NCBI GenBank assembly: GCA_943367535.1
Contig: CALRJK020000012.1
Location: 102-64,101, forward strand
Origin: Synechococcus sp. UW140
GTDB taxonomy: Bacteria > Pseudomonadota > Alphaproteobacteria > Sphingomonadales > Sphingomonadaceae
DNA: 64,000 nt
Direction: 5' to 3'
Shown: positions 4,201 through 18,163 of the stretch, piece by piece
Position numbering within the stretch: position 1 is the stretch's first letter
Layout of the letters: the number at the start of each line of letters is the position of its first letter
The notes under the pieces: model-generated
Seen by the model: only the letters and a program-made list of their open reading frames with translations
Told to the model about the DNA's origin: nothing
The model's database searches: none
Made by a program: the position numbers and the translations under genes

Positions 4201-4434
4201 ATGGCATCGGAAATCCGCATCCCCAAGCTGGGCATGAGCGCGGTTGAAATGACCCTCGTCGAATGGATGTTCGGCGCAGGCGAACGCGTGGAGAAAGGCG
4301 ACATCATCTACACGGTTGAAACCGACAAGAGCACCACCGAGATCGAAGCCCAGGCCAGCGGGACCATCCATCCCACTGGCGAGGAAGGCGCGGTCTACAA
4401 GGTGGGCGATCTGATCGGGACGATCGAGGAGTGA
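4201..4434 (+). CDS. free-standing lipoyl-domain carrier protein (77 aa)
   Basis: Lipoyl-lysine motif VETDKSTTEIEA within a ~75-aa biotinyl/lipoyl fold. No E2 catalytic (DHRxxDG) domain follows in any frame. Confidence 0.8.
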   Translation: MASEIRIPKLGMSAVEMTLVEWMFGAGERVEKGDIIYTVETDKSTTEIEAQASGTIHPTGEEGAVYKVGDLIGTIEE

Positions 4435-4853
4435 TGCCCTCAAGTAGCGAAGCGGTAGGGCAGCAAGGACTCACTCCGCGCGAAATGCTGGCCAACGTCT
4501 ATGCCACCGCCGGCACCCGCGATTGGGCGGCGGTCGAGGCGCTGATCCATCCCGATTTCGTGCTCTACGAGGCGAACTCGCTGCCCTTTGCAGGCGAATG
4601 GCGCGGCAAGGACGCGCTCCAGCGCTGCGCGGCGGCGATGTATGGCACCTGGGGCAGCACCGATCTCGAAATCCTCGATTGCACCGGGGGGGATACCCAC
4701 GCGGTGATGGTGATCCGCCTCACCATGCACCCCAAGGACGGCTCCGCGCCGTTCACCCAGACCATCTGCGAGGCGGGGACTTTCGAAGACGGCTTGCTGC
4801 GGACATTGCGCATCCACTACTTCGACGCAGCCGAGGTTGCCGCGCGCGCGTGA
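4431..4853 (+). CDS. SnoaL/NTF2-like fold protein
   Basis: 140 aa. Pattern W..VEALIHPDFVLYEANSLPFAGEWRG is typical of SnoaL-like small alpha+beta barrel proteins. The start overlaps the previous stop. Confidence 0.6.
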   Translation: MMPSSSEAVGQQGLTPREMLANVYATAGTRDWAAVEALIHPDFVLYEANSLPFAGEWRGKDALQRCAAAMYGTWGSTDLEILDCTGGDTHAVMVIRLTMHPKDGSAPFTQTICEAGTFEDGLLRTLRIHYFDAAEVAARA

Positions 4854-4966
4854 CCGGCGCGAAGTTGCTTGGTTAACCTTATATAGAACAATGTTAATTA
4901 TCGCGAGAAGCCAAGGGCCATGCAGGCCCGGGCGGCTGCGCGGCTGTCCGGTTTTGCAGGGCCGCG

Positions 4967-5986
4967 ATGTCCCGTCACCAGAGCAGCCCGGCCACCCCAG
5001 CGATGAACCCAGCCAATGCCTCTCCAGCCATCACGGGCCTGATCGGTCACACCGGCTTTGTCGGCGGTGCACTGCTGCGCCAGACCGCGTTCGATGCGTG
5101 CTATAACAGCGCGAACATCGCCGGGATCGAGGGCCGCACCTTCGGCACGCTGGTCTGCGCCGCCGCGCCCGGATCGATGCTGGAGGCCAACCGCGCGCCC
5201 GAACGTGACGCAGCCCAGATCGATGCGCTGATCGCCCGTCTGGACAAGGTCGAGGCCGAGCGATTCGTGCTGGTTTCCTCAATCGCGGTGCTGGCGGATT
5301 TCGCAGGGCGCGATGACGAAAGCACGCAGGCCTTCCAGCAGGAACTCGCCTATGGCCGCCACCGCCGCGCGCTCGAAGCTTTTGTCGAAAGCCGCTTCAA
5401 GGGCCACCTGATCATTCGCCTGCCCGCCTTGTTCGGGGCGGGTCTGCGCAAGAATTTCCTGTTCGATCTGATGAACCCCGTTCCCTCGATGCTGACCGAG
5501 GCCAAGCGCGATGCGCTGGTGCGGGCGCTGGGCGCGGAGCTAGGGGAGTGGCTCGCCGGGCTTTACACCCCTGATGCTGCGACCGGCTTGCTGAAGCTGG
5601 ACCGGCCCGCGCTGGATGCCGATCCGCGCCGCCGCGCGCTCGAAGCGGCGCTGGACGGAATGGATGCGACCGCCACCCAGTTCCACCACCGCGACACGAC
5701 CTACCAGTATTATCCGATAGACCGGCTGTGGCAGGATATCGGCATCGCATCAGGGGCGGGGCTGAGCCATCTCCACCTCGCCCCCGAACCGCTGACGGCC
5801 GCAGCCATTCACGCGGCGCTGACCGGCCGGCCGATGCCCGAAACGCCCGCCCGGCTCCACCGCGAAGATATGCGCACCGCCCATGCTGCGCTGTGGGGCG
5901 CACAGGGCCCATACCAGTTCTCCGCCGCTGGCACGCTCGAACTGTTGGCTGCTTTCTTCGCGCAGCCGAAGGGGCTGGCGGTATGA
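4967..5986 (+). CDS. NAD(P)-binding Rossmann-fold protein (epimerase/dehydratase-like)
   Basis: N-terminal glycine loop LIGHTGFVGG. First gene after an AT-rich spacer at 4860-4905. Alternative start at 5003. Confidence 0.6.
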   Translation: MSRHQSSPATPAMNPANASPAITGLIGHTGFVGGALLRQTAFDACYNSANIAGIEGRTFGTLVCAAAPGSMLEANRAPERDAAQIDALIARLDKVEAERFVLVSSIAVLADFAGRDDESTQAFQQELAYGRHRRALEAFVESRFKGHLIIRLPALFGAGLRKNFLFDLMNPVPSMLTEAKRDALVRALGAELGEWLAGLYTPDAATGLLKLDRPALDADPRRRALEAALDGMDATATQFHHRDTTYQYYPIDRLWQDIGIASGAGLSHLHLAPEPLTAAAIHAALTGRPMPETPARLHREDMRTAHAALWGAQGPYQFSAAGTLELLAAFFAQPKGLAV

Positions 5987-6828
5987 AGTTTGCCATGTCC
6001 AACATCGCCTGGGCGCCCGACGAACGGCTGGAGGCCTATGCGATCCTTGCAGACGCGGGCTTCACCGGGCTGGAAATCGCGCCCGGGCTGTTCTTCCATG
6101 AGGCCGAAGACCCCTTCCTGCCCGACACGGCCGGCGCACGCCGCGCGCGGGTCGAGGCGGCGGATGCCGGGCTGACAGTGGTTTCGATGCAGTCGCTCTT
6201 GTTCGGCGTTTCCGGCGCTGGCCTGTTCGATGGGCCGGAAGCGCGCGCAGCCTTCGAGGCTGGCATGCGCCGCGCCATCGCGCTGGCCGAGCGGTTCGCC
6301 ATTCCCAACCTCGTGTTCGGTTCCCCGCTGCAACGCCGCGTGCCCGAGGGGCTGGCTATGGCCGATGCGCAGAACCAGGCCGCCGAGGTGTTCCGCAAGC
6401 TGGGCGATGCAGCCGGAGCCGCGGGCACCCGCATTGCTATCGAGGCCAATCCGGCAGCCTATGGCACCAACTTCTGCAACACGCTGGACGAGGCGTTGGC
6501 CTTCGTCGATCTGGTCGCCCACCCGGCGATTGTGCCGCACCTTGATCTGGGCGCGATGCACATGAACGGGGATTTCGGCGGCGTTACCGCACGGCTGCCT
6601 GCCCTCGCGCCGCGCCTTGCCCACGTCCATGTCAGCGAGCCCGAGCTTGCCCCGGCGCCCGCCGATCCCGAGGCGCTGGCCCCGGTGCTCGGCAGCCTTG
6701 CCCGCGCCGGTTACGCGCGTGCGGTGTCGATCGAAATGAAGCGCCCACCTGAAGGTCTCGCCGCCGTGCGCCGTGCGGTGGCCGGTCTGGTGGCAGCGCG
6801 TGACGGAATGGAGGCGCTCCATGCGTGA
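5983..6828 (+). CDS. sugar-phosphate isomerase/epimerase (xylose-isomerase-like TIM barrel)
   Basis: MKFAMSNIAWAPDERLEAYAILADAGFTGLEIAP is a typical N-terminus for this family. ATGA start/stop overlap with the upstream gene. Confidence 0.7.
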   Translation: MKFAMSNIAWAPDERLEAYAILADAGFTGLEIAPGLFFHEAEDPFLPDTAGARRARVEAADAGLTVVSMQSLLFGVSGAGLFDGPEARAAFEAGMRRAIALAERFAIPNLVFGSPLQRRVPEGLAMADAQNQAAEVFRKLGDAAGAAGTRIAIEANPAAYGTNFCNTLDEALAFVDLVAHPAIVPHLDLGAMHMNGDFGGVTARLPALAPRLAHVHVSEPELAPAPADPEALAPVLGSLARAGYARAVSIEMKRPPEGLAAVRRAVAGLVAARDGMEALHA

Positions 6829-7858
6829 ACCCCCCGCTGACCAGTTCAGGGACCAGTTCAGGAAGCTGCGCGAGGATGTGGTGGTTTCGGTATGCTTCTC
6901 CGAGCTTGCCGCCACCCCTGCGACCTTCGCCGCCCTGCGCGATATCGCCGCCACGCTCGACCGTGCTTACCGCTTCCGTGAGATCATTCTCGTGGTCGAT
7001 GACACACAGCGCGAGGCCTTCCTGCCGGTGGTGCGTGAAGTGCCCAACACCCGCCTGTTCGTCGTCCGGCGCGGGACGGAGTATTATGATCGCCGCGTGA
7101 TCGCCGCCGAGGAGTCCATCGGCGATCTGGTGGTGCTGGGCCATCTGGAGGAGGTCGCCGCGCTCGATCTCCTGGCGTTCCTTGATTACGCCGAGGCCGA
7201 AAACGCGGTGACGATGGCCTTTCGTCCGGCCCGTCGCCCGTTCAAGCGGCTGGCGGCATGGCCCTTCATCGCGCTGGGCAAGCTTGCCGGGTTCAATGTC
7301 GATCCTGCGGAATTCCAGTCGATTGCGGTGCCGCGCACGCTGCTCAACCTGCTGCTCGCGCATGACGAGCCGCGCCTTGCGCTGCGTTTCCCCCCACGCG
7401 ATCCGCGTCTGCCGCGCGAATGGTTCCGCACCGGGGTGAATGTCGCCAGCCGCACCGCCTTCACCGGCGTGGGGCGCAGGCTTGCGCTGCTCCAGACCCT
7501 GCTCGTTTACCTCACGCCCACGATCCTGTCGGTGGTGGCGATTTCCTCGTGCCTGCTGACGCTTGTGGGGCTGGCCTATGCCGCGTGGATCGTGGGCGCG
7601 GTGGTGCTGGTGGAGAGCCTTGCCCCCGGCTGGCTGACGACCAACGCGATGCTGGCGGTGAGCGCCACCTTCATGGGCTTTTCGATGCTGGGGCTGAGCC
7701 TTGGGCTGCAACATCTGCTGAAGCAGCAGCGGCGGCTGAAGTGTGATCTGGTGCCTGAGGAAGTGAACCGGATCGACCTGTTCCAGCAGGTCGCCTTCGA
7801 TCTCAACGTGGTGCTGGAGAGCGACACGCCCTCCGCGACGACGCCCCCGGAGGCCTGA
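6821..7858 (+). CDS. GtrB-like family-2 glycosyltransferase homologue with degenerate catalytic motifs, C-terminal TM helices
   Basis: The layout follows bactoprenol-glycosyltransferase GtrB: VSVCFSE / ILVVDD / IGDLVVLGHLEE and a C-terminal PGW...TM segment. The usual YNE and DxD (DADLQ) positions read FSE and GHLEE. The start overlaps the upstream stop. Confidence 0.6.
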   Translation: MREPPADQFRDQFRKLREDVVVSVCFSELAATPATFAALRDIAATLDRAYRFREIILVVDDTQREAFLPVVREVPNTRLFVVRRGTEYYDRRVIAAEESIGDLVVLGHLEEVAALDLLAFLDYAEAENAVTMAFRPARRPFKRLAAWPFIALGKLAGFNVDPAEFQSIAVPRTLLNLLLAHDEPRLALRFPPRDPRLPREWFRTGVNVASRTAFTGVGRRLALLQTLLVYLTPTILSVVAISSCLLTLVGLAYAAWIVGAVVLVESLAPGWLTTNAMLAVSATFMGFSMLGLSLGLQHLLKQQRRLKCDLVPEEVNRIDLFQQVAFDLNVVLESDTPSATTPPEA

Positions 7859-9015
7859 TGCCCACAGGCGAGCGCACCCAATATGATTACATCGTGATCG
7901 GCGGCGGCTTTTACGGCTGCTGCCTCGCGTTGTACCTGCGCTCGATCTCGCAGCGCGTGCTGCTGGTGGAGGCGGGCGAGCGGCTGATGGACCGCGCCTC
8001 GCGGGTCAACCAGGCGCGGGTGCATACCGGCTTCCACTACCCGCGCAGCGCGGCGACAGCGGTGAAATCGATGCTGCTCCACCGCCGCTTCCTCAGCGAC
8101 TTCCCCGAGGCTGTGGTCGGTGACTTCCAGATGCTCTATGCCATCGCGCGGCGGCGTTCGAAGGTCACGGCCAAGAAATTCCACCGGATGTTCCGCGATA
8201 TGGGCGCGCCCATCGACATCGCCGGGCCGGCCCACCGCGCGCTGTTCAACCCCGATATGGTCGAAGAGGTCTTCGCCTGTCACGAGGTCGCCTTCGATCA
8301 CAAAATCCTGGGCAAGCTGGTGGGCGAAAGACTGACGGCGGCAGGCATCGAGGTGCGGCTGGCCACGCAGGTCACCGGGCTGGAGGACCACGCGAGCGGC
8401 GTGGTCGCCCGCCTGTCCGACGGCAGCGAGGTGTCCGCGCGCTACGCCTTCAACATCACCTATTCGCAGATCAACGCGGTGCTGGCCAAAGCGGGCCTGC
8501 CGCCTGCACGCCTCAAACACGAAATCGCCGAACTCGCCCTGATCGAGCCCCCGCGCGAGCTGGAGCGGGTGGGTGTCACGGTGATGGACGGGCCGTTCTT
8601 TTCGGCCATGCCCTATCCGGCGGAGGGGCTCTATTCCTTCACCCACGTGCGCTACACCCCGCATGACAGCTGGGCCGACAATGCGCAGGCGCGCGATCCT
8701 TACGCGCACTTTGCCGCGCTGGAGCCTGAAAGCCGCTATGCCTTCATGCAGCGCGATGCGCAGTTCTATCTGCCGTGCCTTGCAGGTGCCACCTATCGCC
8801 GGTCGATCTACGAGGTGAAGACCGTTCTCATCAAGAACGAGGGCGATGATGGCCGCCCGATCCTCTATCACCGCAGCCCCGAGGCGAGCCGCGTGATCTC
8901 GGTGCTGGGCGGCAAGATCGACAATATCTACGACCTGTTCGAGGCGGTAAAGGACGGCGGCGGGGAATTTGCCGCGCTGGATCCGGTCCATGTGTTCGGG
9001 CGGGTCCATGCCTGA
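7858..9015 (+). CDS. FAD-dependent oxidoreductase (GxGxxG Rossmann type)
   Basis: N-terminal dinucleotide fold YDYIVIGGGFYGCCLALYL...LLVEAG. The start shares a base with the upstream stop. Confidence 0.8.
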   Translation: MPTGERTQYDYIVIGGGFYGCCLALYLRSISQRVLLVEAGERLMDRASRVNQARVHTGFHYPRSAATAVKSMLLHRRFLSDFPEAVVGDFQMLYAIARRRSKVTAKKFHRMFRDMGAPIDIAGPAHRALFNPDMVEEVFACHEVAFDHKILGKLVGERLTAAGIEVRLATQVTGLEDHASGVVARLSDGSEVSARYAFNITYSQINAVLAKAGLPPARLKHEIAELALIEPPRELERVGVTVMDGPFFSAMPYPAEGLYSFTHVRYTPHDSWADNAQARDPYAHFAALEPESRYAFMQRDAQFYLPCLAGATYRRSIYEVKTVLIKNEGDDGRPILYHRSPEASRVISVLGGKIDNIYDLFEAVKDGGGEFAALDPVHVFGRVHA

Positions 9016-11083
9016 GATTGTGCGCGGGACAGGGCGCTGGCGCGGTTTCGCCGTGCTGGCGGTGGTGTTCGTGCTGCTGGCGGGCTTGCGCGGCGCGTTG
9101 CTGCTGCACGAGCACAGCCTCAATTCGATCGACGGCGCCTTGCAGACATGGTTCGCGCTCGATCACTTCGGGCGCGGGGAACAGCTGGGGACCGCGTTCC
9201 AGTCCTATCTCGGCATCACCATGGTGCTGGCGCTGCTGCCGGTGTTCGTGCTTGGCGGCAAGACGCTGTTCGCCTCGACGCTGGCGGCTTACACGCTGGT
9301 GCTGGCAGGGGCTTTCGCCGTCGCTTACGCCTGCGTGTGGTTGATCCGCCCGGTGCCGCCGCGCGCGCGCTGGCAGGCTGCCTTGGTGCTGGTTTTCCTG
9401 TTCTATTATGCCGGAGCGATGGCGGGCAAGGCGGTAGGCCTAACTGGGCCGGCGACGCTCGATCCGGGCGTGTCGCTGCGGCCATTGCGAGGCGCGCTGC
9501 CGTTTCTGGTGCTGCCGTGCTTCCTCGTGTTGGTGCGCCGGGTCTGGCTGGGGGGCCGGGCGATTGCCGGAGGGCTGCCGCTCGGGCTGATCGCCGGGGC
9601 GGGGCTGCTGTGGTCGAACGATGCGGGCATCCCGCTGGCCATCGCGCTGACCGGCGCGCTGGTGCTGGCGCTGTGGCCGCGCCCGGCGCTGCTGGCCCGG
9701 ACAATGGCGGCTTTCGTGCTTGGCGTCATGGCGTCGGCAGGCGCGATCCTGCTGGGCGTGACGCATGGCGCGCCGGAGCCGTGGTTCACCTATAATTTCC
9801 GCGATGTCGCCGCCGACCAGTTCTGGTTCTTCGCCCCGTGGGAAAGAACCACGCGCATTCTCGGGCCGGGCGACCTCCCCAATATCCTGCGGCACGCCGA
9901 CCCGCTTTCGGCGCTGAGCCTTGTGGTGCTGGCGCTGTGCGTCGCCTTTGCCGCGCTCCAGCGGCTGCGCGGGCGGAGCGCGCCGGTGCGGGGGAGCGCC
10001 TTCGTTTTCCTTGGCGCGAGCGTGCTCGGCACCGCGCTGCTCCCGCAGATCGGCGGGCACGTGGGGGCGGAGTATAATGGCATCACCTTCGTGCTGGGCG
10101 TCTGCGCGCCGCTGATCGTTGCCCCCGCAGGCCTGTGGCGGCGGACGAGCGACGTGCTGCGGCTGGTCAGCGCGAGGCAGATCGCGGCGCTGACCGGCGT
10201 CGCCGTGCTGGCGATGGCGGGGACAGAGGCCGCGCGTCTCGCCCTCTCCCCCGCCCGCGCCGAACGGACAGTGTATGATCCCGCGCTCGGCTTCTTCGTG
10301 ACCCCTGCCTATGCCGCAGACCTTGCCGCGATGCGCAAGCTGGCGGCGGCATGGGATGGGCTGGGCGTGCCGCAGGATCGCCGCTTGCTGTCAGTCTATA
10401 CCTCGCCGATCGATATTGCTGCAGGGACGCGCAGCCCCGCCGATGTCGGATCGCTGATCCACGCTTTGGGGCCGGAGAAACGCGCCGCCTTCACCGCGCT
10501 GGTCGCGGAGCAGCGGGTCGCCGCCGTCACCACCATCGCGCCGGATTATAGCGGGTGGGAGGGGTGGCTGCTGCGCGCCAACTGGCCGTTCTTCCGGAAT
10601 TTGCGCGAGAATTACGTACCGCTTGCACGCAATAACCAGCAGGTGCTGTGGATGCGTGCCGAGGGCAAGCCGATGGCTCCGGCCCCGGCATCCTGCCGCA
10701 TCGCCGCAAGCGCGCCGGGGCGGCTGGCGCTGGACATCACCGCCGCTGCCGAAGGCATCGCCTCGGTCAGCGTCACCCGCCAGCCGCCTTTCGCCACGGG
10801 GCGCGGGGCGATGTTGACGGTGGTGGAGGATTCCCCGGATACCGCCCCTTCCGGCCGCGAACGCTGGGCCGGTTTCCCGCGCTATGGCATCGCCAATAGC
10901 CCCGCGCTGGAGCTGATGGCCCCCGTCACGCCCGGCCGCGCCACCCGGCTGACGCTTGAAACGCTCGACGGCTCGCCGATTGGCGAGGCGACCTGCACCG
11001 CCCAAGCCTTGCCCGCCATCGATTTCGCCGCGCTCCCTTCGCTCAGTCGCGGAGCCGAACGATATAGGGCGGCGGCGCCATGA
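9008..11083 (+). CDS. polytopic membrane protein with large C-terminal soluble domain (possible GT-C-like transferase)
   Basis: About 10-12 hydrophobic helices over the first ~400 aa, then a ~290-aa hydrophilic domain. ATG 9008 overlaps the upstream stop. I recognise no family motif with certainty. Confidence 0.6.
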   Translation: MPEIVRGTGRWRGFAVLAVVFVLLAGLRGALLLHEHSLNSIDGALQTWFALDHFGRGEQLGTAFQSYLGITMVLALLPVFVLGGKTLFASTLAAYTLVLAGAFAVAYACVWLIRPVPPRARWQAALVLVFLFYYAGAMAGKAVGLTGPATLDPGVSLRPLRGALPFLVLPCFLVLVRRVWLGGRAIAGGLPLGLIAGAGLLWSNDAGIPLAIALTGALVLALWPRPALLARTMAAFVLGVMASAGAILLGVTHGAPEPWFTYNFRDVAADQFWFFAPWERTTRILGPGDLPNILRHADPLSALSLVVLALCVAFAALQRLRGRSAPVRGSAFVFLGASVLGTALLPQIGGHVGAEYNGITFVLGVCAPLIVAPAGLWRRTSDVLRLVSARQIAALTGVAVLAMAGTEAARLALSPARAERTVYDPALGFFVTPAYAADLAAMRKLAAAWDGLGVPQDRRLLSVYTSPIDIAAGTRSPADVGSLIHALGPEKRAAFTALVAEQRVAAVTTIAPDYSGWEGWLLRANWPFFRNLRENYVPLARNNQQVLWMRAEGKPMAPAPASCRIAASAPGRLALDITAAAEGIASVSVTRQPPFATGRGAMLTVVEDSPDTAPSGRERWAGFPRYGIANSPALELMAPVTPGRATRLTLETLDGSPIGEATCTAQALPAIDFAALPSLSRGAERYRAAAP

Positions 11084-11490
11084 CCGAACTCGTGCGCTTC
11101 TTCCTTGTGACGGTGCTGGGGGTGGTGATCGACCTCGCCATCGCCCTTGCGCTGCACACCTATGCAGGCGCAGATCTGTGGCTGGCCGCCGCGATCGGCT
11201 TTGCCCTCGCGGCGAGCGCCAATTATGTCATCCACCAGACATGGAGTTTCCGCAGCGGCCCGCTCTCGCTGAAACGCGCGGCGCTGTATGCGCTGGTTGC
11301 GCTGGTCACGCTGGCGGTGCGGGTCGGGATTGTGGCGCTGCTCGAACAGGCGGTGCCGGGGGCGTGGCCGCTCGCCATCCTGATCGCCGGGGCGGGGGGA
11401 TCGTTCCTCGTGAACTTCGGCTTGAGCAAGTTCGTGGTCTTCGCCCCTGAACCCGGGACCGCTCCGGCACATGCAGGTGAAACGCCATGA
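11080..11490 (+). CDS. GtrA family membrane protein (lipid-linked sugar translocation associated)
   Basis: 136 aa with 4 TM helices; LVRFFLVTVLGVVIDLAI...ASANYVIHQTWSFR is the classic GtrA signature. Overlaps both neighbours (ATGA). Confidence 0.85.
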   Translation: MTELVRFFLVTVLGVVIDLAIALALHTYAGADLWLAAAIGFALAASANYVIHQTWSFRSGPLSLKRAALYALVALVTLAVRVGIVALLEQAVPGAWPLAILIAGAGGSFLVNFGLSKFVVFAPEPGTAPAHAGETP

Positions 11491-13817
11491 CGATCCGCCC
11501 CGAACCATTGCTGGACGATGCCGCATGGGACGTCCCCGCGCATGACGTCGCGCTCTACGCCCCGCGCCTGCACCGCCACGCGCTGGTGATCCCGGTCATC
11601 AACGAGGGCGCGCGCATCCGCGGCCAGCTCTTGCGTGTTCAGGCGGCAGGCCTGCCGGTCGATGTGGTGATCGCGGACGGGGGATCGACCGACGGCTCGC
11701 TCGATGACGAGTTCGTCGGCCAAGCCGGCGTGCGCGCGGTGTTGACCAAGACCGGGCCGGGCAAGCTCTCCGCCCAGTTGCGCATGGCCTATGCCTGGTG
11801 CTTGCGCCAAGGCTATGCCGGGATCGTCACCATCGACGGCAACGGCAAGGACGGGGTTGAGGCGGTGGCGGCGATGGTCGCCAAGCTGGAGGAGGGCTGC
11901 GATTATGTGCAGGGCTCGCGGTACCTGCCCGGCGGCGCGGCGGAGAACACGCCGCTGGAGCGCACCATCGCCAACCGCCTGATCCACGCACCAATGCTCA
12001 GCATCGCGGGGCGGCACTGGTTCACCGACACCACGAACGGCTTCCGCGCCTATTCCGCCCGTTACCTGACGCATCCGGGGGTGCAGCCCTTCCGCGAGGG
12101 GTTCTCGGTCTACAACCTGTTGTTTTACCTGACGGTGCGCGCAGGGCAGCTGGGGTTGAGGGTCGATCATGTGCCGGTGGTGCGGCGCTATCCCGATGAC
12201 GGGAAGGTGCCGACCAAGATCGGCGGATTTGCCTCGAAAATGGCGCTGCTGAAGGAGACCTTCGTGGCGGCGACCGGCGGCTACACGCCCGATGCCGCCG
12301 CACCGCGCGCCGGGTGGCTGTGGCAGGGGGCGGTGCTCTTCGCGTTGCTGGCGGCGCTGCTGCTGAACGTGGTCGCCGCGCCGCCATATTCGCCGGATTC
12401 CTGGGCGCTGTGGGAGCTATCGCAGACAGTGTTCGGCGATTTCTACCGCTTCACCCACTGGCGCAGTTATGCCGGCGAGATCCCCTATTCCGCTAGCTTC
12501 CCGCCGCTCACCCCGTTGTTGATCGCGTGCCTTGATGCGCTGCTGGGCACCGGCCCGCGCACCGGGTTGTTCCTCGCCTTTGCCAGTTTTGCCGGCTTCG
12601 CGCTGGTGTCCGAGGCGATCGGGCGGCGGGTGACAGGGGCGGCGTGGCTGGGGCTCGGTGCGGCGCTCGTGCTGCTGCTTGGCCCCAACATGCTGCTGAT
12701 CGAGATGCAGGCGGGGCGCACGATCCCGCTGCAATTGCTGCTTTATGCGCTGGTGTTGCTGGGGCTGCTGGCACCTGAACGGATCAGCCTTGTGCGCGCT
12801 GCCATGATCGGCTTCGTCGCGGGTCTTGCCGTGCTGAACCGCTTTGATGCCTTGCTGCTGCCGGTTCCGGCGGCGCTGGCCGTGGGCTGGCTGACCCGTT
12901 CGCCCGCGCGCGGGGCCATGGCGCTGGCGGCGTCCGCCCTCGCCGTGTCGCCGTGGGCGCTGTATTCGCTGACGCATTTCGGGGTGCTGTTCGCCACCGA
13001 CAATGCCGGGATCGCGACAGCCCTCGATCCGCAGGCCTATGTGACCGACTGGTGGCCGACGCCGCAGGCAACCCTCGCCGATGATCCGCTGGCATGGGCG
13101 GGCAAGGTCGCGGCGAACATAGGCACGCTTGTCTGGGTCGCGGCGGGGCTGGCGGCGAGCTGGTTCGGCCTTGCGAGCGCGGCGTTTCTCGCCTTTCCCG
13201 CGATGCTGGCGTGGCTGTGCCGGACAGAACGACATCCGCGAACGGCGCTGTTCGTGCTGGCGGGCTTTGCCGTGCTGGCCGGGCTGATGCTCGCACCGCA
13301 GGTGCTCACCGGCTATATCGAGCAGCGGTATTTCAGCGCGGCTGTGTGGGCGGCGCTGCTGACCGCGGCCTGCGCCGGGATCATGCAGAGCGGCGCGCTC
13401 CACCAGCGGACGATCTTTGCGCGCGGCGCTGCGGCGGCAGCGATGTTTGCGGTCGCGGTGCTGGCTGCGGGGCACGCCTTCACCGCCAGGCCCGATCGCG
13501 CTGCCTTTGACGATCCCGCTGACGTTCGCGCCCTCAAGGCCTGCCTTGCCGACGCCCCTGAAGCGCGCGTGCTCGTGCTGGGCGACGACACATTGGCCGC
13601 GCGCGCCGGGGCGTTGGGGGGCGTCACCACGATGATGGCACCGCGCAACATTGCCGAAGGCCGCCTCGATCCCGCCGGAGCCCGCGCCTTTGCCGCCGCA
13701 TGGCAGCCCCGTTTCGCACTGGCCGCCGATCCGCAGCGCGCCCGCTGGATCGAACAGACCTTCGCGGCCGCACCCGTGCCCGGTTGCCCGCTCGCGCTCT
13801 ACCGTCTTCCCCGCTGA
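11487..13817 (+). CDS. fusion protein: N-terminal GT2 (polyprenyl-phosphate glycosyltransferase-like) plus C-terminal multi-TM GT-C/PMT_2-like domain
   Basis: N-terminus has LVIPVINEG, VIADGGSTDGS and TIDGNGKDG (GT2/DPM1-like). From about residue 290 there are >10 TM helices, with an acidic first loop (PPYSPDSWALWE) as in ArnT/PMT-type transferases. Confidence 0.8.
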   Translation: MTIRPEPLLDDAAWDVPAHDVALYAPRLHRHALVIPVINEGARIRGQLLRVQAAGLPVDVVIADGGSTDGSLDDEFVGQAGVRAVLTKTGPGKLSAQLRMAYAWCLRQGYAGIVTIDGNGKDGVEAVAAMVAKLEEGCDYVQGSRYLPGGAAENTPLERTIANRLIHAPMLSIAGRHWFTDTTNGFRAYSARYLTHPGVQPFREGFSVYNLLFYLTVRAGQLGLRVDHVPVVRRYPDDGKVPTKIGGFASKMALLKETFVAATGGYTPDAAAPRAGWLWQGAVLFALLAALLLNVVAAPPYSPDSWALWELSQTVFGDFYRFTHWRSYAGEIPYSASFPPLTPLLIACLDALLGTGPRTGLFLAFASFAGFALVSEAIGRRVTGAAWLGLGAALVLLLGPNMLLIEMQAGRTIPLQLLLYALVLLGLLAPERISLVRAAMIGFVAGLAVLNRFDALLLPVPAALAVGWLTRSPARGAMALAASALAVSPWALYSLTHFGVLFATDNAGIATALDPQAYVTDWWPTPQATLADDPLAWAGKVAANIGTLVWVAAGLAASWFGLASAAFLAFPAMLAWLCRTERHPRTALFVLAGFAVLAGLMLAPQVLTGYIEQRYFSAAVWAALLTAACAGIMQSGALHQRTIFARGAAAAAMFAVAVLAAGHAFTARPDRAAFDDPADVRALKACLADAPEARVLVLGDDTLAARAGALGGVTTMMAPRNIAEGRLDPAGARAFAAAWQPRFALAADPQRARWIEQTFAAAPVPGCPLALYRLPR

Positions 13818-13922
13818 AGCGGCCTATCTCCGCGCCCGTCTCGACCTCCTGCGCATAATGGCGTATTCTCCCCATGCGGGACGCCGCCTTACTGCACAGC
13901 CGATCCACGAGGGGACGATCCG

Positions 13923-14786
13923 GTGAAACAGTCGCTCATCAACCTGCTGCCGCCTGCGACACTGGCGGCGATCCTCGCCTTCTGGGGCCTTGCGCCTGCC
14001 GCCTGGGTCGAGGCGCCGTGGGCGCTGCCTGCCGTGGGCGTGGGCACGGTGGTGTTTGTTCAGACGCTCGAATTCCTGTTCGAGCGTCACGCCGGCTGGC
14101 GCATGAACATCCGCGAGTTCGCCACCGACATCTTCTACTTCGCCTTCTTCTTCTTCGTGATCGGCGCAGCTTCGGACGCGCTGATCAACTCGCCCCTGCG
14201 CGCGCTCAAGGAGGTGTGGGGCATCGGCACCCCGTGGCTGATGCAACTGCCCTTCCTGGCGCAGGCGATGATCGCGCTGTTTCTGTTCGAGCTCGGCCAA
14301 TACTGGATGCACCGCGCGATGCACAACTGGACGCCGCTATGGCTGACCCACGCGCCGCATCATCACCTGACGCAATTGAACGCGATGAAGGGCTATATCG
14401 GCAATCCGGTCGAGCTGTTCCTGATCAGCATCGGCGTGATCGCGTTGCTGGATGTTGACCGCAACGCCCTGTTCGCCAGTTTCACCATCGGCGGCGCGAT
14501 CGCGATCTATGCCCACGCCAATGTTCGGGCCAACCCGCCGATCTGGTACGGCTTCTTCTTCACCACGATCCGGAACCACTCGCTCCACCACACCGCCACC
14601 AGCTATGCAGACACCCGCTGCAATTACGGCAACAGCGTGATCTTCTGGGACCGCGTGTTCGGCACCTACAAGGAGGGGGAGGGCGCCATCGTCGGTCAGG
14701 ATGATCGCAAGCGGTTGTCGATCTGGGAGCAATGGACCTTCCCGCTGCGCCCGTGGCTGGAAAAGCGCCGGGGCGCGCAAGGGTAG
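13923..14786 (+). CDS. fatty acid hydroxylase / sterol desaturase family membrane protein
   Basis: Histidine boxes HRAMHNW, HAPHHH and NHSLHH in a membrane context; GTG start. Confidence 0.85.
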   Translation: MKQSLINLLPPATLAAILAFWGLAPAAWVEAPWALPAVGVGTVVFVQTLEFLFERHAGWRMNIREFATDIFYFAFFFFVIGAASDALINSPLRALKEVWGIGTPWLMQLPFLAQAMIALFLFELGQYWMHRAMHNWTPLWLTHAPHHHLTQLNAMKGYIGNPVELFLISIGVIALLDVDRNALFASFTIGGAIAIYAHANVRANPPIWYGFFFTTIRNHSLHHTATSYADTRCNYGNSVIFWDRVFGTYKEGEGAIVGQDDRKRLSIWEQWTFPLRPWLEKRRGAQG

Positions 14787-14854
14787 GAGCGGGCGCTTTC
14801 GGGCGGGCTGCACACCTGCGTGGAACGGGCGTTGTCGGAGCATCAAGACACAGC

Positions 14855-15391
14855 ATGGATGTAACGGTCCGCATCGCGACAATGGCAGACCTGCCCGCCC
14901 TGCGCGGCCTGATCGAGCGCGCCATCACGCAATTGCAGCGCGGGTTTCTCGACCCGGCAGAGATCGAGGCTAGCCGCCAGTTCATGGGGGTGGACACCCA
15001 GCTGGTGCGGGACGGAACCTACCTTTGCGCGATCATTGACGGGCAATTGGCCGGCTGCGGCGGGTGGAGCTGGCGGCGGACGCGTTATGGCGGGGATGAT
15101 GCGGTGGATCTGATCGATCCCTCGCCGCTCGACCCCTTGACCGAGCCTGCCAGGATCAGGGCGATGTACACCGACCCCGGTTTTGCCCGGCGCGGGGTGG
15201 GTCTGGCGATCATCACCGCCGCCGAAGACGCCGCCCGCGCTGCCGGGTTTCGTGCGGTGGAGTTGATGAGCACGCTATCGGGCGAACCGCTGTACCGCCG
15301 CTGCGGTTACAGCGCGACCGCCGCGCGGGTGCACCACGCGGATGTCCCGCTCATCCCGATGCGCAAGAGCCTGCTTGCTGCACCGGGATGA
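14855..15391 (+). CDS. GNAT family N-acetyltransferase
   Basis: Acetyl-CoA motif RRGVGLAIITAAEDAARAAGF. ATG 14855 lies inside ORF 14732..15391. Confidence 0.8.
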   Translation: MDVTVRIATMADLPALRGLIERAITQLQRGFLDPAEIEASRQFMGVDTQLVRDGTYLCAIIDGQLAGCGGWSWRRTRYGGDDAVDLIDPSPLDPLTEPARIRAMYTDPGFARRGVGLAIITAAEDAARAAGFRAVELMSTLSGEPLYRRCGYSATAARVHHADVPLIPMRKSLLAAPG

Positions 15392-15409
15392 GGGAAGGAT
15401 TGCCGCCGA

Positions 15410-18163
15410 TCAGAAGCGCGCGGTGACCCGCGCGTACCAGAACCCGCCCATCCAGCCGATCGGGGAGCCGTCGTTGTAGATCGACCCGTTCGCCGCCCCG
15501 CCGGTTCCGGCGAAGATGTTGCGGGTCTCACGCTCGGGCATGGTGTCGAACAGGTTCTGCGCCCCCACCGCGATGCGGTATTTTTCGGCGAAGGTCATGC
15601 CCACTTCGATATCGAAGCTCGCCTGAGCGCCGAACTTCTTGGCAAACGGCACCGGATACAGCGCCTGCGCTTGCGCCTGCGTGGTGATGCCGCCGGCGTT
15701 TGGCGTCGGGCCAATGCCGGTGGTGATCGGATCGAAGAAGCTGGTGAAGCTGCCGAAGTAGTTCACCCGCGCGACGGCATCGACAATGCCTTGCGTGTAG
15801 ATGGTGGAAAGCACCGCACGCCAGCGCGGAACCGATTCCTCGATATTGCCGACGCGCACATCGTCCACCGGCTGGAAGTTCGACAGCACCCGTCCGCTTG
15901 CGAGCGTGCCGTTGATGATCTTGCGATCGGTCACTTCGGTGGTGTTGTAATTGACCGCAAGGTTCGATCTGAAGCGACCGATGCCGGTGTCTGCGTCATG
16001 CGAGACGACCACATCGAAACCCTGGGTGCGCGTATCGAAGGCGTTGGTGAAGTACCGCACCGAGCCAAGCTCGGCGGCCTCGGCGATGCCCTGCGAGAGC
16101 AGGAATTGTGCGTCGGTCAAACCGTTGGCGTTAACAATATTGGGGTTGATCGCGCCGGAAATGCCGATCCGGTCGGTGACCTTGATGTTGTAGTAATCGA
16201 CCGTGATGTTGAACCCGCCGCCGGGCTGGATGACCAAACCGCCCGAGAGACTGAGCGACTTTTCCGGGGTGAGCCCCTCGGCGAGGTAGAACTGGCCGAT
16301 GTCACTGTCGGGCCGCGCGACAAGGGTGCCGAGCGGAACTGTCGAGCCGAAGGGGAAACCGGTGGTCAGGTTCTGCGTGAACTGCTGGCCCGGCGTCGGA
16401 GCGCGGAAGCCGGTCGAGGCCGTGCCGCGCAGTGCGATGGCATCGGTGAATTCATAGCGCGCCGAGACCTTGCCGTTGAAGGTGTCACCGAAGTCGTCGA
16501 AATAGTCGTAGCGCGCAGCGATCCCGACATCGAGCCCGGTGACCGGGGTGGCTTCGAAATCGATGTAGCCCGAATAGTTGTTGCGTCCGCCTTCGATCAC
16601 CGACGCGGGGCCAAAGCCCTGGAAGCCGTTGGAGCCCGGCAGTGCGACCTGCGTGCGCACGAAGGCCGGAGCCGACGCACCCGGGGTCGAACACGGCACG
16701 GGTGCCGCGGCAAGCGTGCACTGGAACAGGCGCTGCGAGGCATAGGGGCCGACCGTCCACGAAGGCGTGTCGCCCAGCCCGACCTCGAAGGCCTCGCGCC
16801 GCACTTCCACGCCCCATGCGATGAACAGCGGATCGGCAAAGCCGACTTCGACTTCGGTGTTGAAGTCGCCGTTGAAGTTGAATTCGCGCTGGACGAATTT
16901 GCCCATGTAGAATTCGGTCGGCGTGTTGGGCCCAAGCGAGGCGTTGATCGTGTCGCTCATGAAATAGCGGATCTGGTTGACGCCATACATCATCGAGAGA
17001 TCGTAGTTGACGCCCGACATCTCGCCCTTGAACCCGCCGACGATGCCGATGTCTTCGTTGGTCTGTTCAAAGAACGGGATGAAGCCGTTGCGCTGATCGG
17101 GGAAGCGATTGTCGTTGAAGATGTCGAACCTCGCCCCGTTCAGGTCCCATTGCGGGCGTCCCTGTGTATCGAAGCCGACCTGGGTGAGGAACACGATCGG
17201 CACCGGCCGGCCGGTCGAATTGGTGCCCGGGCGGCCGGGGATCGGCAGGTGCGTGGTGGAAACCGGCGGGCGATAGTTGAAGTCGTTGCCCTGGCGCTGG
17301 TAGCCGTAGTTGGCAAAGGCGTAGAAGGTCGTGTCGCCAGCCGGAATTTCGGTGTTGATGGTGGCGCGGTAGGCGCGGTTCTCGGGCCCGCCGAGGCGGT
17401 TGCCGGTCGGCTGGTCGGGCGTGATGCCGAGTGCGCGGAGCGGCTCGATCGCCGGGCGCTCCACCGAACGGTCGAAGACGTTCTGGTCGATGAATTCCAG
17501 CGACAGGTTGAAGAAGCCGCCGTTGTCCCCGAGCTCGGTGCCGTAAAATGCGGTGAGCTGGGTATCCTCGCCATCACCGGCATAGGACTGGCCGTAGCGC
17601 GCAGTGACCTCGTAACCGGTATCGCGGCGCAGGCCGATATTGATCACGCCGGCAATCGCGTCCGAACCATATTGTGCGGCCGCACCATCGCGCAGCACTT
17701 CGACCCGGCCCACGGCGGCGCTGGAGATCTGCGAAAGGTCGGCGCCTTGCGCGCCGGCGTTGAGCGCGCCGCCCTGAAGCTGGACCAGCGCCGAGCGGTG
17801 CACGCGCTTGCCATTGAGGAGCACGAGGATCTGGTCGGCCGGCAGGCCGCGCAGCGTCGGCGGGCGGATAAAGGCGGAAGCGTCGCCGAGCAGGTTGCGT
17901 TGCTGGTTGAAGGAGGGAACCAGCGTTTGGAGAATCGTTTGCAATTGCGGCGCGGGCTGTGCCTTGAAATCGTCGGCTGTGAAAACGTCGACCGGCGCGG
18001 AGCTTTCCAGCACGGTGCGATCGGTGCGGCGGGTGCCGGTTACGACAATCGCCTGCCCGGGATCGGTGGCAACCTGCTCGGCCGGATCGAGTGTGTCGTC
18101 CTCCGCCAGCAGAGGAGAAACGGGTACAGCAAGCGACGCAAGGAGAAGGTGACGAATACGCAT
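15410..18163 (-). CDS. TonB-dependent receptor
   Basis: Signal peptide MRIRHLLLASLAVPVSPLLAE; plug motifs (IVVTGTR, LRGL, RVEVLRDGAAAQYGSDAIAGVINI); C-terminal ...ARVTARF with terminal Phe. Confidence 0.9.
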   Translation of the reverse strand: MRIRHLLLASLAVPVSPLLAEDDTLDPAEQVATDPGQAIVVTGTRRTDRTVLESSAPVDVFTADDFKAQPAPQLQTILQTLVPSFNQQRNLLGDASAFIRPPTLRGLPADQILVLLNGKRVHRSALVQLQGGALNAGAQGADLSQISSAAVGRVEVLRDGAAAQYGSDAIAGVINIGLRRDTGYEVTARYGQSYAGDGEDTQLTAFYGTELGDNGGFFNLSLEFIDQNVFDRSVERPAIEPLRALGITPDQPTGNRLGGPENRAYRATINTEIPAGDTTFYAFANYGYQRQGNDFNYRPPVSTTHLPIPGRPGTNSTGRPVPIVFLTQVGFDTQGRPQWDLNGARFDIFNDNRFPDQRNGFIPFFEQTNEDIGIVGGFKGEMSGVNYDLSMMYGVNQIRYFMSDTINASLGPNTPTEFYMGKFVQREFNFNGDFNTEVEVGFADPLFIAWGVEVRREAFEVGLGDTPSWTVGPYASQRLFQCTLAAAPVPCSTPGASAPAFVRTQVALPGSNGFQGFGPASVIEGGRNNYSGYIDFEATPVTGLDVGIAARYDYFDDFGDTFNGKVSARYEFTDAIALRGTASTGFRAPTPGQQFTQNLTTGFPFGSTVPLGTLVARPDSDIGQFYLAEGLTPEKSLSLSGGLVIQPGGGFNITVDYYNIKVTDRIGISGAINPNIVNANGLTDAQFLLSQGIAEAAELGSVRYFTNAFDTRTQGFDVVVSHDADTGIGRFRSNLAVNYNTTEVTDRKIINGTLASGRVLSNFQPVDDVRVGNIEESVPRWRAVLSTIYTQGIVDAVARVNYFGSFTSFFDPITTGIGPTPNAGGITTQAQAQALYPVPFAKKFGAQASFDIEVGMTFAEKYRIAVGAQNLFDTMPERETRNIFAGTGGAANGSIYNDGSPIGWMGGFWYARVTARF

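Follow-up and report, generated by a model that had tools for sequence, protein, structure and literature searches.

We report here the analysis of an operon of seven genes, called G1 to G7, located on the + strand at positions 4967-13817 of a 64,000-nucleotide stretch of DNA from Synechococcus sp. UW140 (assembly GCA_943367535.1, contig CALRJK020000012.1, positions 102 to 64,101; this whole stretch is called the window below). Altogether, our data suggest, with a probability that we put at about 0.55, that this operon encodes a three-component system for extracytoplasmic glycosylation with a built-in module for remodeling the sugar donor. More tentatively, and at somewhat less than even odds, we propose that the products of G1 to G4, namely a short-chain dehydrogenase/reductase (SDR), a TIM barrel, a pseudo-glycosyltransferase of the GT2 type and a flavin adenine dinucleotide (FAD) enzyme, could form a widespread machine that epimerizes a hexose or a pentose on undecaprenyl phosphate through a keto intermediate, with a dead ArnC-like glycosyltransferase as holder of the lipid-linked sugar.

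An initial annotation of the region had described seven genes chained by overlapping stops and starts, and the junctions proved to be exact. Every start overlaps the preceding stop, by 4 nucleotides between G1 and G2 (ATG at 5983), 8 between G2 and G3 (6821), 1 between G3 and G4 (7858), 8 between G4 and G5 (9008), 4 between G5 and G6 (11080) and 4 between G6 and G7 (11487). Since intergenic gaps appear only after G7 (105 nucleotides before G8 and 68 between G8 and G9), we limit the coupled unit to the seven genes at 4967-13817. A scan of 4300-15600 with promoter and terminator consensus patterns was uninformative as to the operon boundaries, with no promoter-like site and fewer terminator-like sites than expected from shuffled sequence. 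The guanine-plus-cytosine content is high across the region, about 65-70%, and the closest relatives of the window's proteins belong to Erythrobacter and Porphyrobacter (Erythrobacteraceae). The identities that had been assigned to six of the products were borne out by Pfam, NCBIfam and family-profile searches: an RmlD-like SDR, a TIM barrel, an ArnC-like GT2, an FAD enzyme, a GtrA protein and a DPMS-like GT2.

The operon contains the three hallmarks, in sequence and structure, of a Gtr-type system, that is a GT2 of the polyprenyl-phosphate type, a GtrA protein and a GT-C protein with an acidic residue in its first loop, in agreement with the logic of periplasmic glycosylation that had been invoked for it. 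G6 (11080..11490, 136 amino acids) is a GtrA-family protein with four hydrophobic, putative transmembrane segments; it matches the Pfam family GtrA_DPMS_TM (PF04138) at 3e-18, with 66.6 bits for a cut-off of 26.1, and is predicted to be the membrane partner of the soluble GT2 and/or a flippase for the polyprenyl-phosphate sugar. The 776-residue product of G7 is made of two parts. The N-terminal domain (11487..12290, about residues 1-268) resembles the GT2 enzymes DPMS, PpgS and AglJ. It scores slightly below the Pfam GT2 cut-off (21.6 bits versus 23.3), a weak match, and its family profile retrieves the Pyrococcus DPMS (5mlz, 2.2e-9), followed by ArnC (2.5e-5) and GtrB (1e-4), while its NCBIfam matches are AglJ (1e-10) and PpgS (5e-10). 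We thus predict that this domain is a polyprenyl-phosphate sugar synthase. In most other genomes its counterpart is a stand-alone protein of about 265 amino acids, with 63-75% identity.

The C-terminal domain of G7 (12291..13817, about residues 269-776) is polytopic, ends with a small alpha/beta domain and displays the predicted fold of an ArnT-like GT-C transferase. The AlphaFold2 model of residues 265-776 is of high confidence, with a predicted local distance difference test (pLDDT) of 89.4 and a predicted TM-score (pTM) of 0.91. Its best Foldseek match is ArnT (5f15, 2.2e-6, TMq 0.56), and 25 further matches are GT-C proteins, including STT3, AglB, AftB, AftA, PglB, DPY19 and ALG3/9 in the Protein Data Bank (PDB). 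GT-C enzymes carry a catalytic acid after the first transmembrane helix, and the G7 family possesses at this place, in the first periplasmic loop, an invariant P-D304-S-W...E310...D318 motif. Two homologues also have a precomputed assignment to PMT_2 (PF13231). G5 (9008..11083, 691 amino acids) is likewise predicted to be a membrane glycosyltransferase of the GT-C fold, with about 12 hydrophobic segments followed by a soluble tail of roughly 270 residues that is predicted to be periplasmic and combines an alpha/beta part with a beta-sandwich, the latter giving weak Foldseek matches of the carbohydrate-binding-module (CBM) kind. An invariant aspartate, D42, lies in the first loop after its first transmembrane helix. 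In Foldseek searches of the PDB, the AlphaFold2 model of G5 (pLDDT 77, pTM 0.77) retrieves AftA first (8if8, 1.1e-5), then AftD, STT3 and ArnT (TMt about 0.5). The single-sequence searches performed with G5 and with the C-terminal domain of G7 (Pfam, NCBIfam and phmmer against the PDB) gave no match, and no Pfam or NCBIfam model names either of them or G3. The structural check therefore supports the view of these large membrane proteins as glycosyltransferase-like, GT-C proteins coming first for both in Foldseek, and according to the models the operon has two transferases of the GT-C type, of which one shares a polypeptide with the synthase.

The other conserved genes encode putative redox and epimerase enzymes. 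G1 (4967..5986, 339 amino acids), the first gene of the conserved set and devoid of transmembrane segments, encodes an extended SDR, predicted to be an RmlD-like keto-sugar reductase. Its match to the Pfam Epimerase family (PF01370) is right at the threshold (E 2.5e-4) and it has no match in NCBIfam; its family profile, on the other hand, matches the dTDP-4-dehydrorhamnose (dTDP, deoxythymidine diphosphate) reductase RmlD (8g22) at 3.5e-5. The GxxGxxG motif is present, and an invariant Y129xxxR133 stands in place of the YxxxK catalytic motif of extended SDRs. At the C terminus, the members of the family are extended by about 120 conserved amino acids without any database match. G2 (5983..6828, 281 amino acids) is a xylose-isomerase-like TIM barrel of the ketose 3-epimerase or 3-keto-glycoside epimerase type. 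It matches AP_endonuc_2 (PF01261) at 5.7e-24, and its profile matches D-psicose and D-tagatose 3-epimerases (about 1e-10) as well as the 3-keto-D-glucoside 4-epimerase YcjR (6wn6, 2.9e-9). Among 24 sequences of the family, E154, D188, H214 and E251 are invariant; judging from their spacing, these residues could constitute the E-D-H-E metal-binding and catalytic tetrad.

G4 (7858..9015, 385 amino acids) is an FAD oxidoreductase of the DAO family (PF01266, 8.8e-18) with a GxGxxG motif at residues 13-20. The best PDB match of its profile is glycerophosphate oxidase (4x9m, 7.6e-7), its other best PDB relatives being GR2-type flavoproteins, and its identity across the loci compared below is 56-92%. 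G4 gives no match to FAD_binding_4 and is not of the PCMH fold of DprE1, and the earlier distinction between this Rossmann flavoprotein and DprE1 was correct. G4 is predicted to oxidize a secondary hydroxyl of a sugar to a ketone. The three enzymes G1, G2 and G4 have neither a signal peptide nor a convincing transmembrane segment and are therefore probably cytoplasmic.

The remaining member of the set is G3 (6821..7858, 345 amino acids), a homologue of the polyprenyl-phosphate glycosyltransferases ArnC and GtrB with juxtamembrane and transmembrane helices. Single-sequence searches with G3 (Pfam, NCBIfam and phmmer against the PDB) failed to give any match. The profile of its family, built with 24 sequences, matches ArnC (9hwj, 7e-7); the alignment covers positions 19-288, starting at the first beta-strand and taking in the two transmembrane helices. 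In ArnC, D100 of the motif 100-DADLQN-105 is the proposed catalytic base, and in the equivalent motif of GtrB the second aspartate and the glutamine have been assigned to metal coordination (bioRxiv 10.1101/2025.01.29.634835). In the G3 family, the residue at the D100 position is variable, the equivalent of Q104 is absent and a near-invariant glutamate, E111, occupies the position of D102, the second aspartate of DxD. Conservation is also lost at the nucleotide motifs YNE and DDGS.D. G3 itself reads FSE at the YNE position and GHLEE at the DxD position, as had been noted when a non-catalytic or re-purposed paralogue was suggested. The invariant residues lie elsewhere: E54, R78, Y89, I-G-D 100-102, G-W 270-271, and E314 and N329, which belong to a conserved C-terminal tail. 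Because the catalytic-base position is variable, the nucleotide motifs are lost and the invariant residues are found at other places, G3 most likely descends from a polyprenyl-phosphate glycosyltransferase and is no longer catalytic, and its predicted role is that of a binder of the lipid-linked sugar or of a scaffold. We rejected a recent duplication of the synthase of the operon as the origin of G3, since the hhalign comparison of the G3 family with that of the G7 N-terminal domain is not significant (probability 0.15); G3 is closer to ArnC. The G3 family is small: only 210 of the cluster representatives at 50% identity, from a set of 1.84 billion proteins, belong to it. It is a good marker for the gene set, which we call the cassette.

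In a scan in which each GTDB species was represented by a single genome, relatives of the GT2 domain of G7 were found in 444 genomes. The best 80 of these 444 loci were fetched and compared by tblastn with all the operon proteins. About 70 of the 80, contig-truncated loci included, show the same order of abutting or overlapping genes across many genera, a conservation that exceeds chance and runs against an independent assortment of these genes, a possibility raised with the initial annotation. The core order G1-G2-G3-G4-G6-GT2 (that is SDR, TIM barrel, pseudo-GT2, FAD enzyme, GtrA and the counterpart of the G7 N-terminal domain), mostly abutting, is kept in Erythrobacteraceae, Caulobacter, Sphingomonas, Novosphingobium, Rhizobium, Thalassospira and Ancylobacter and, among Rhodobacteraceae, in Loktanella, Sulfitobacter, Salipiger and Pseudooceanicola. 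A few loci (Nitrospirillum L064, L043 and L069) have a different gene order and no detectable G3. We also considered three G3 homologues with 22-25% identity. Each of them shares its gene run with genes for an AP_endonuc_2 TIM barrel and for a DAO protein; the TIM barrel is directly upstream in two of the three and the DAO gene directly downstream in one, and an SDR with a weak Epimerase match lies alongside in two.

By comparison, the two large membrane parts of our operon are, among these loci, largely restricted to Erythrobacteraceae. Within the fetched loci, G5 stands between G4 and G6 only in those of the Erythrobacteraceae type, displaced copies being seen in a metagenome-assembled genome (MAG) of Hyphomonadaceae and in Primorskyibacter. 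Pseudooceanicola onchidii and a related MAG have, between the FAD gene and the GtrA gene, a gene for another polytopic protein, of about 520 amino acids (L049:8010-9569 and L051:8008-9585); it occupies the slot of G5, to which the protein has no sequence similarity. The fusion of the GT2 to a domain like the C-terminal one of G7 is found in Erythrobacteraceae and in some MAGs. Separate neighboring genes encode the GT2 (271 amino acids) and a 33%-identical homologue of the C-terminal domain (538 amino acids) in Aurantiacibacter luteus; the fusion of synthase and transferase described in the 776-residue protein is thus real and derived from adjacent genes. The arrangement had not been recognized as a described locus in the initial annotation. 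This holds insofar as we found no characterized locus of this kind, but the arrangement is not unique, as it consists of a widespread six-gene core (G1-G4, G6 and the GT2 of G7) plus additions specific to Erythrobacteraceae. We propose that this core is an ancient mobile cassette and that the transferases are interchangeable add-ons.

A same-strand protein with at least six transmembrane segments directly abuts the cassette in 22 of the 35 loci without fusion. These partners belong to several families for which no Pfam model was found. The sole Pfam match in the partner search, an SSF symporter, was considered a neighbor and not a partner. Acidic motifs such as WIDE and GDNDD after the first transmembrane helix of some of the partners are suggestive. 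Copies of the cassette also exist on plasmids of Cereibacter sphaeroides, Sphingomonas sanguinis, Azospirillum and Psychrobacter. The plasmid p.A of Cereibacter sphaeroides (CP031752.1; L081 11914-14433) encodes a second GT2::membrane-domain fusion, of 839 amino acids, which aligns with G7 over residues 1-306 only, through the first transmembrane helix and the PDxW motif; as the remainder is unrelated to G7 in sequence, the GT2 was probably fused here independently, with another transferase domain. The Psychrobacter sp. plasmid pA22P4 (NZ_MN657058.1, 10.8 kb) harbors a compact, re-ordered variant (L085 2336-8624) composed of an SDR, a TIM barrel, an SMR-family transporter, an FAD oxidoreductase, a G3-like open reading frame (ORF; about L085:5410-6400, missing from the plasmid gene table), a GT2 and a 480-residue membrane protein. 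This plasmid has annotated MobC and relaxase genes, yet it is typed as non-mobilizable by PLSDB. In this variant an SMR protein stands where GtrA is found elsewhere, a hint that the slot belongs to a small protein resembling a flippase, as in the case of ArnE/F.

The genomic settings of the cassette in other genomes point to O-antigen or exopolysaccharide (EPS) as acceptor. Indeed, it resides in O-antigen- or EPS-type clusters in three cases. In a Caulobacter MAG it lies among rmlB/rmlC, GT4 and ABC-transporter genes, and on the Sphingomonas sanguinis plasmid pNP2-R2 it adjoins a "sugar transferase" of the phosphoglycosyltransferase type and a GT2. On plasmid p2 of Azospirillum sp. TSA2s (L086 8257-13069), the order is SDR-like, TIM barrel, GT2, FAD oxidoreductase and a 339-residue "glycosyltransferase", in an ABC-transporter O-antigen-like cluster with gmd, methyltransferases, GT4, GT9 and GT61. 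A membrane protein of the LPG_synthase_TM type is encoded about 4 kb away on the latter plasmid.

On this basis, the following scheme can be envisaged. The N-terminal domain of G7, together with G6, would load a sugar from a nucleotide sugar onto polyprenyl (undecaprenyl) phosphate at the cytoplasmic face of the membrane, as the activities of their families suggest. G4 would then oxidize a ring hydroxyl of the lipid-linked sugar to a ketone, G2 would invert the carbon adjacent to this ketone and G1 would reduce the ketone with NAD(P)H, the reduced nicotinamide adenine dinucleotide (phosphate). According to the chemistry of these families and their co-conservation, the product would be an epimeric, probably rare, sugar still attached to its carrier. 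We infer that remodeling takes place on the lipid-linked sugar rather than on the nucleotide sugar, and G3 could serve to retain the polyprenyl-phosphate sugar and/or to bring the three soluble enzymes to the membrane. The lipid-linked sugar would be flipped, possibly by GtrA (or by the SMR protein in Psychrobacter), and finally the C-terminal domain of G7 and G5, with its CBM-like tail, would transfer it to periplasmic acceptors, as expected from their predicted folds. Cell-surface polysaccharides are the most likely acceptors. Nothing in the analysis of the operon or in the comparison of loci was found to point to glycosphingolipids.

Several observations weigh against this scheme. In the putative synthase domain of G7, D117-G-N119 aligns with the DAD motif, so that D-G-N replaces the canonical DxD. 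The confidence of the G5 model is moderate (pLDDT 77), with Foldseek TM-scores of 0.3-0.5, and an all-against-all hhalign comparison of the partner membrane proteins, G5 and the C-terminal domain of G7 included, gave probabilities of at most 5%; the partners found elsewhere thus have no detectable profile relation to GT-C or to each other. The Azospirillum variant has no GtrA and no obvious GT-C nearby. Since a glutamate is kept at the second DxD position, G3 might retain some residual catalysis. Within the window, no glycan or lipid cluster lies near the operon, which has housekeeping neighbors instead. Finally, the computed evidence is alike for remodeling on the lipid carrier and on a nucleotide sugar before transfer, and RmlD-type reductases normally act on dTDP-sugars.

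This last point bears on the main alternative explanation, in which the FAD oxidase, the TIM-barrel epimerase and the SDR turn a soluble nucleotide sugar into an unusual one, the GT2 then loading the finished sugar onto polyprenyl phosphate, and G3 is a membrane anchor or an unrelated regulator. The resemblance of G1 to dTDP-4-dehydrorhamnose reductases, which are nucleotide-sugar enzymes, and the absence of membrane segments from G1, G2 and G4 would fit such a pathway, and the genes of nucleotide-sugar pathways are often found in the same operon as their transferases. However, neither a nucleotidyltransferase nor a 4,6-dehydratase was found in the cassette with Pfam, NCBIfam or in the fetched loci. 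Moreover, we know of no nucleoside-diphosphate (NDP)-sugar pathway in which DAO-type flavoenzymes or TIM barrels of the ketose-3-epimerase type are established; the enzymes usual in such pathways are SDRs with tightly bound NAD and epimerases of the cupin type. The co-conservation of G3, a degenerate homologue of polyprenyl-phosphate glycosyltransferases that has retained its membrane part, better suits a lipid-linked substrate. The missing genes, the unusual enzyme families and this pseudo-glycosyltransferase lead us to consider remodeling of a nucleotide sugar less likely. One could also assume that G3 is itself active, as a second synthase of polyprenyl-phosphate sugars whose metal site is non-canonical, in which case there would be two different lipid-linked donors, one for each GT-C, and the redox and epimerase enzymes would serve only one branch. 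The presence of two GT2-like and two GT-C proteins in the Erythrobacter operon, the near-invariant glutamate at the position of the metal-binding second aspartate and the invariant I-G-D are consistent with this idea. We nevertheless consider it improbable, as G3 is present in every cassette with only one membrane partner, remains in its TIM/FAD gene context even at 22-25% identity, and belongs to a family where the catalytic-base aspartate position is variable and the YNE and DDGS.D motifs are not conserved.

One would also wonder whether the acceptor could be a membrane lipid or a protein (lipid A-like, glycosphingolipid, ornithine lipid or protein O-glycosylation), or whether the redox module could be a fortuitously linked pathway for the catabolism or salvage of 3-keto-glycosides. 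The ArnT/PMT_2-like fold of the G7 C-terminal domain does serve lipid A and protein acceptors, an OlsE-like lipid hydroxylase gene lies downstream in the nearest relatives, and there is no glycan cluster near the operon in the window; pairs of an FAD or NAD oxidase and a TIM barrel are also found in 3-keto-glycoside catabolism. The hydroxylase and the GNAT gene that follows it are, however, not conserved with the cassette, which elsewhere lies in O-antigen- or EPS-type clusters with rml, gmd, ABC-transporter, phosphoglycosyltransferase and GT4 genes, and the beta-sandwich tail of G5 gives weak Foldseek matches to proteins of the carbohydrate-binding-module kind. As for a fortuitous linkage, it is incompatible with the synteny seen across orders. 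We thus give little credence to these possibilities and retain as our preferred reading an extracytoplasmic glycosylation system with its own donor-remodeling module.

A parallel can be drawn between this system and several described ones. Gtr-type three-component systems are represented by GtrA/GtrB/Gtr* of Shigella and Salmonella phages and by CsbB/GtcA/YfhO in Firmicutes. Like them, the operon combines genes for a polyprenyl-phosphate sugar synthase of the GT2 family, a small protein of the GtrA family and a transferase of the GT-C fold, if our predictions are right. However, its synthase has no transmembrane helices of its own and is fused to a GT-C, a second GT-C is present, and four conserved genes, those of the SDR, the TIM barrel, the pseudo-GT2 and the FAD oxidase, have no Gtr counterpart. 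The mycobacterial galactosamine system PpgS (Rv3631)/Rv3632/Rv3779 comprises a soluble-type GT2 synthase, a separate GtrA-like protein and a GT-C transferase. The N-terminal domain of G7 matches the NCBIfam model of PpgS, as said above, but with 39 bits for an equivalog cut-off of 370, and the mycobacterial system lacks a fusion as well as genes for redox enzymes or epimerases. In the Arn pathway (ArnC, ArnD, ArnE/F and ArnT), ArnD provides a precedent for altering a sugar already attached to undecaprenyl phosphate, the profile of G3 is closest to ArnC, the model of the G7 C-terminal domain is closest to ArnT, and the SMR protein found in place of GtrA in the Psychrobacter variant has a parallel in ArnE/F, which is of the SMR type. 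The chemistry of our operon would be a redox reaction plus an epimerization, whereas that of Arn is a deformylation, and G3 does not have the catalytic aspartate of ArnC. As G3 lacks a competent DADLQN motif and none of the ArnA, ArnB and ArnD domains (decarboxylase/formyltransferase, aminotransferase and deformylase) is found in G1-G9 or in the flanking genes, we rejected a membership in the Arn pathway for the modification of lipid A with L-4-aminoarabinose (L-Ara4N).

The remodeling step also has analogies among described enzymes. The DprE1/DprE2 pair, analogous but not homologous, also oxidizes and then reduces a carrier-linked sugar, decaprenyl-phospho-ribose, whose stereochemistry is thus changed before its use by GT-C enzymes. 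On the other hand, G4 is a DAO/Rossmann flavoprotein whereas DprE1 is of the PCMH/FAD_binding_4 type, the operon adds a TIM-barrel epimerase, and its donor would come from a GT2 and an NDP-sugar instead of a UbiA-type phosphoribosyltransferase and phosphoribosyl pyrophosphate (PRPP). There is no UbiA-family gene in the operon or in the cassette. With neither a flavoenzyme of the DprE1 fold nor a PRPP-dependent UbiA-type transferase, a membership in the DprE1/E2 family was rejected. In Escherichia coli, YcjQRS interconverts D-glucosides and D-gulosides by oxidation of C3, epimerization of the neighboring carbon in a xylose-isomerase-like TIM barrel and reduction, a chemistry that resembles the one proposed here. 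YcjS and YcjQ are NAD-dependent enzymes of the Gfo/Idh/MocA and MDR types and act in catabolism on free glycosides; the oxidase of our operon, in contrast, is a flavoprotein encoded in a putative operon for lipid-carrier glycosylation. In Citrobacter youngae O2, the SDR ORF13 converts undecaprenyl phosphate (undP)-Ribf to undP-Xylf, and the authors of that work stated that they were not aware of any further epimerase in systems for side-chain glycosylation (PMC11127046).

Concerning the surroundings of the operon, two genes follow it at the place where a fatty-acid hydroxylase and a GNAT had been reported. G8 (13923-14786) matches FA_hydroxylase at 1.2e-23 and resembles the ornithine-lipid hydroxylase OlsE (NCBIfam OlsE 1e-16, far below cut-off), and G9 (about 14855-15391, 3' of G8) is a GNAT protein (2e-9). 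G8 adjoins the cassette only in the nearest relatives, where it is sometimes displaced by 2-3 kb, and is absent within 10 kb in the others; the GNAT gene is present in none of the fetched loci. We therefore do not retain G8 and G9 as members of the system. The operon is flanked in the window by genes for an E1 dehydrogenase, a SnoaL protein, a TonB receptor, polA, metK, lnt, prfA and hisS, and a link to a neighboring glycan or lipid cluster was rejected, the flanking genes being of the housekeeping type. Elsewhere in the window, the - strand encodes at 28401-30707 a double-AAA ATPase of 768 amino acids; its CDC48_N and CDC48_2 domains give it an architecture like that of Cdc48/p97, here in the chromosome of an alphaproteobacterium. 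The 783-residue ORF at 21088-23439, also on the - strand, matches DUF305/DUF4142 over residues about 66-217 only; the remaining roughly 560 amino acids are without Pfam match, and the ORF call may be over-extended.

A search of the full-text literature, which covers few papers from subscription journals, found no published description of the cassette, and the database names of its proteins are all generic ("hypothetical protein", "glycosyltransferase family 2 protein", "FAD-dependent oxidoreductase"). What is new with respect to the described systems is a conserved four-gene remodeling module with a pseudo-glycosyltransferase, which is probably an integrated module for the epimerization of lipid-linked sugars, together with recurrent synthase::GT-C fusions and a modular swapping of transferases. 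Given the GT2 relatives in 444 species genomes, the plasmid copies and the lack of family models, a single genetic and biochemical study could annotate hundreds of loci.

Periplasmic, that is post-export, glycosylation is a main source of the diversity of surface antigens, and the range of sugars that it can add has been considered to depend on which polyprenyl-phosphate donors are available. If our proposal is correct, the cassette would provide a new and non-homologous route for the epimerization of lipid-linked sugars, beside DprE1/DprE2 and the SDR of the ORF13 type. It would also offer a clear case of a pseudo-glycosyltransferase retained for substrate handling, and its flavin oxidase, TIM-barrel epimerase and reductase would be new glyco-engineering enzymes acting at the membrane. 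A rare sugar without a nucleotide-activated form could in this way reach surface glycans through interchangeable GT-C transferases, and the resulting enlargement of the donor repertoire could explain the presence of rare sugars in the O-antigens and EPS of Alphaproteobacteria.

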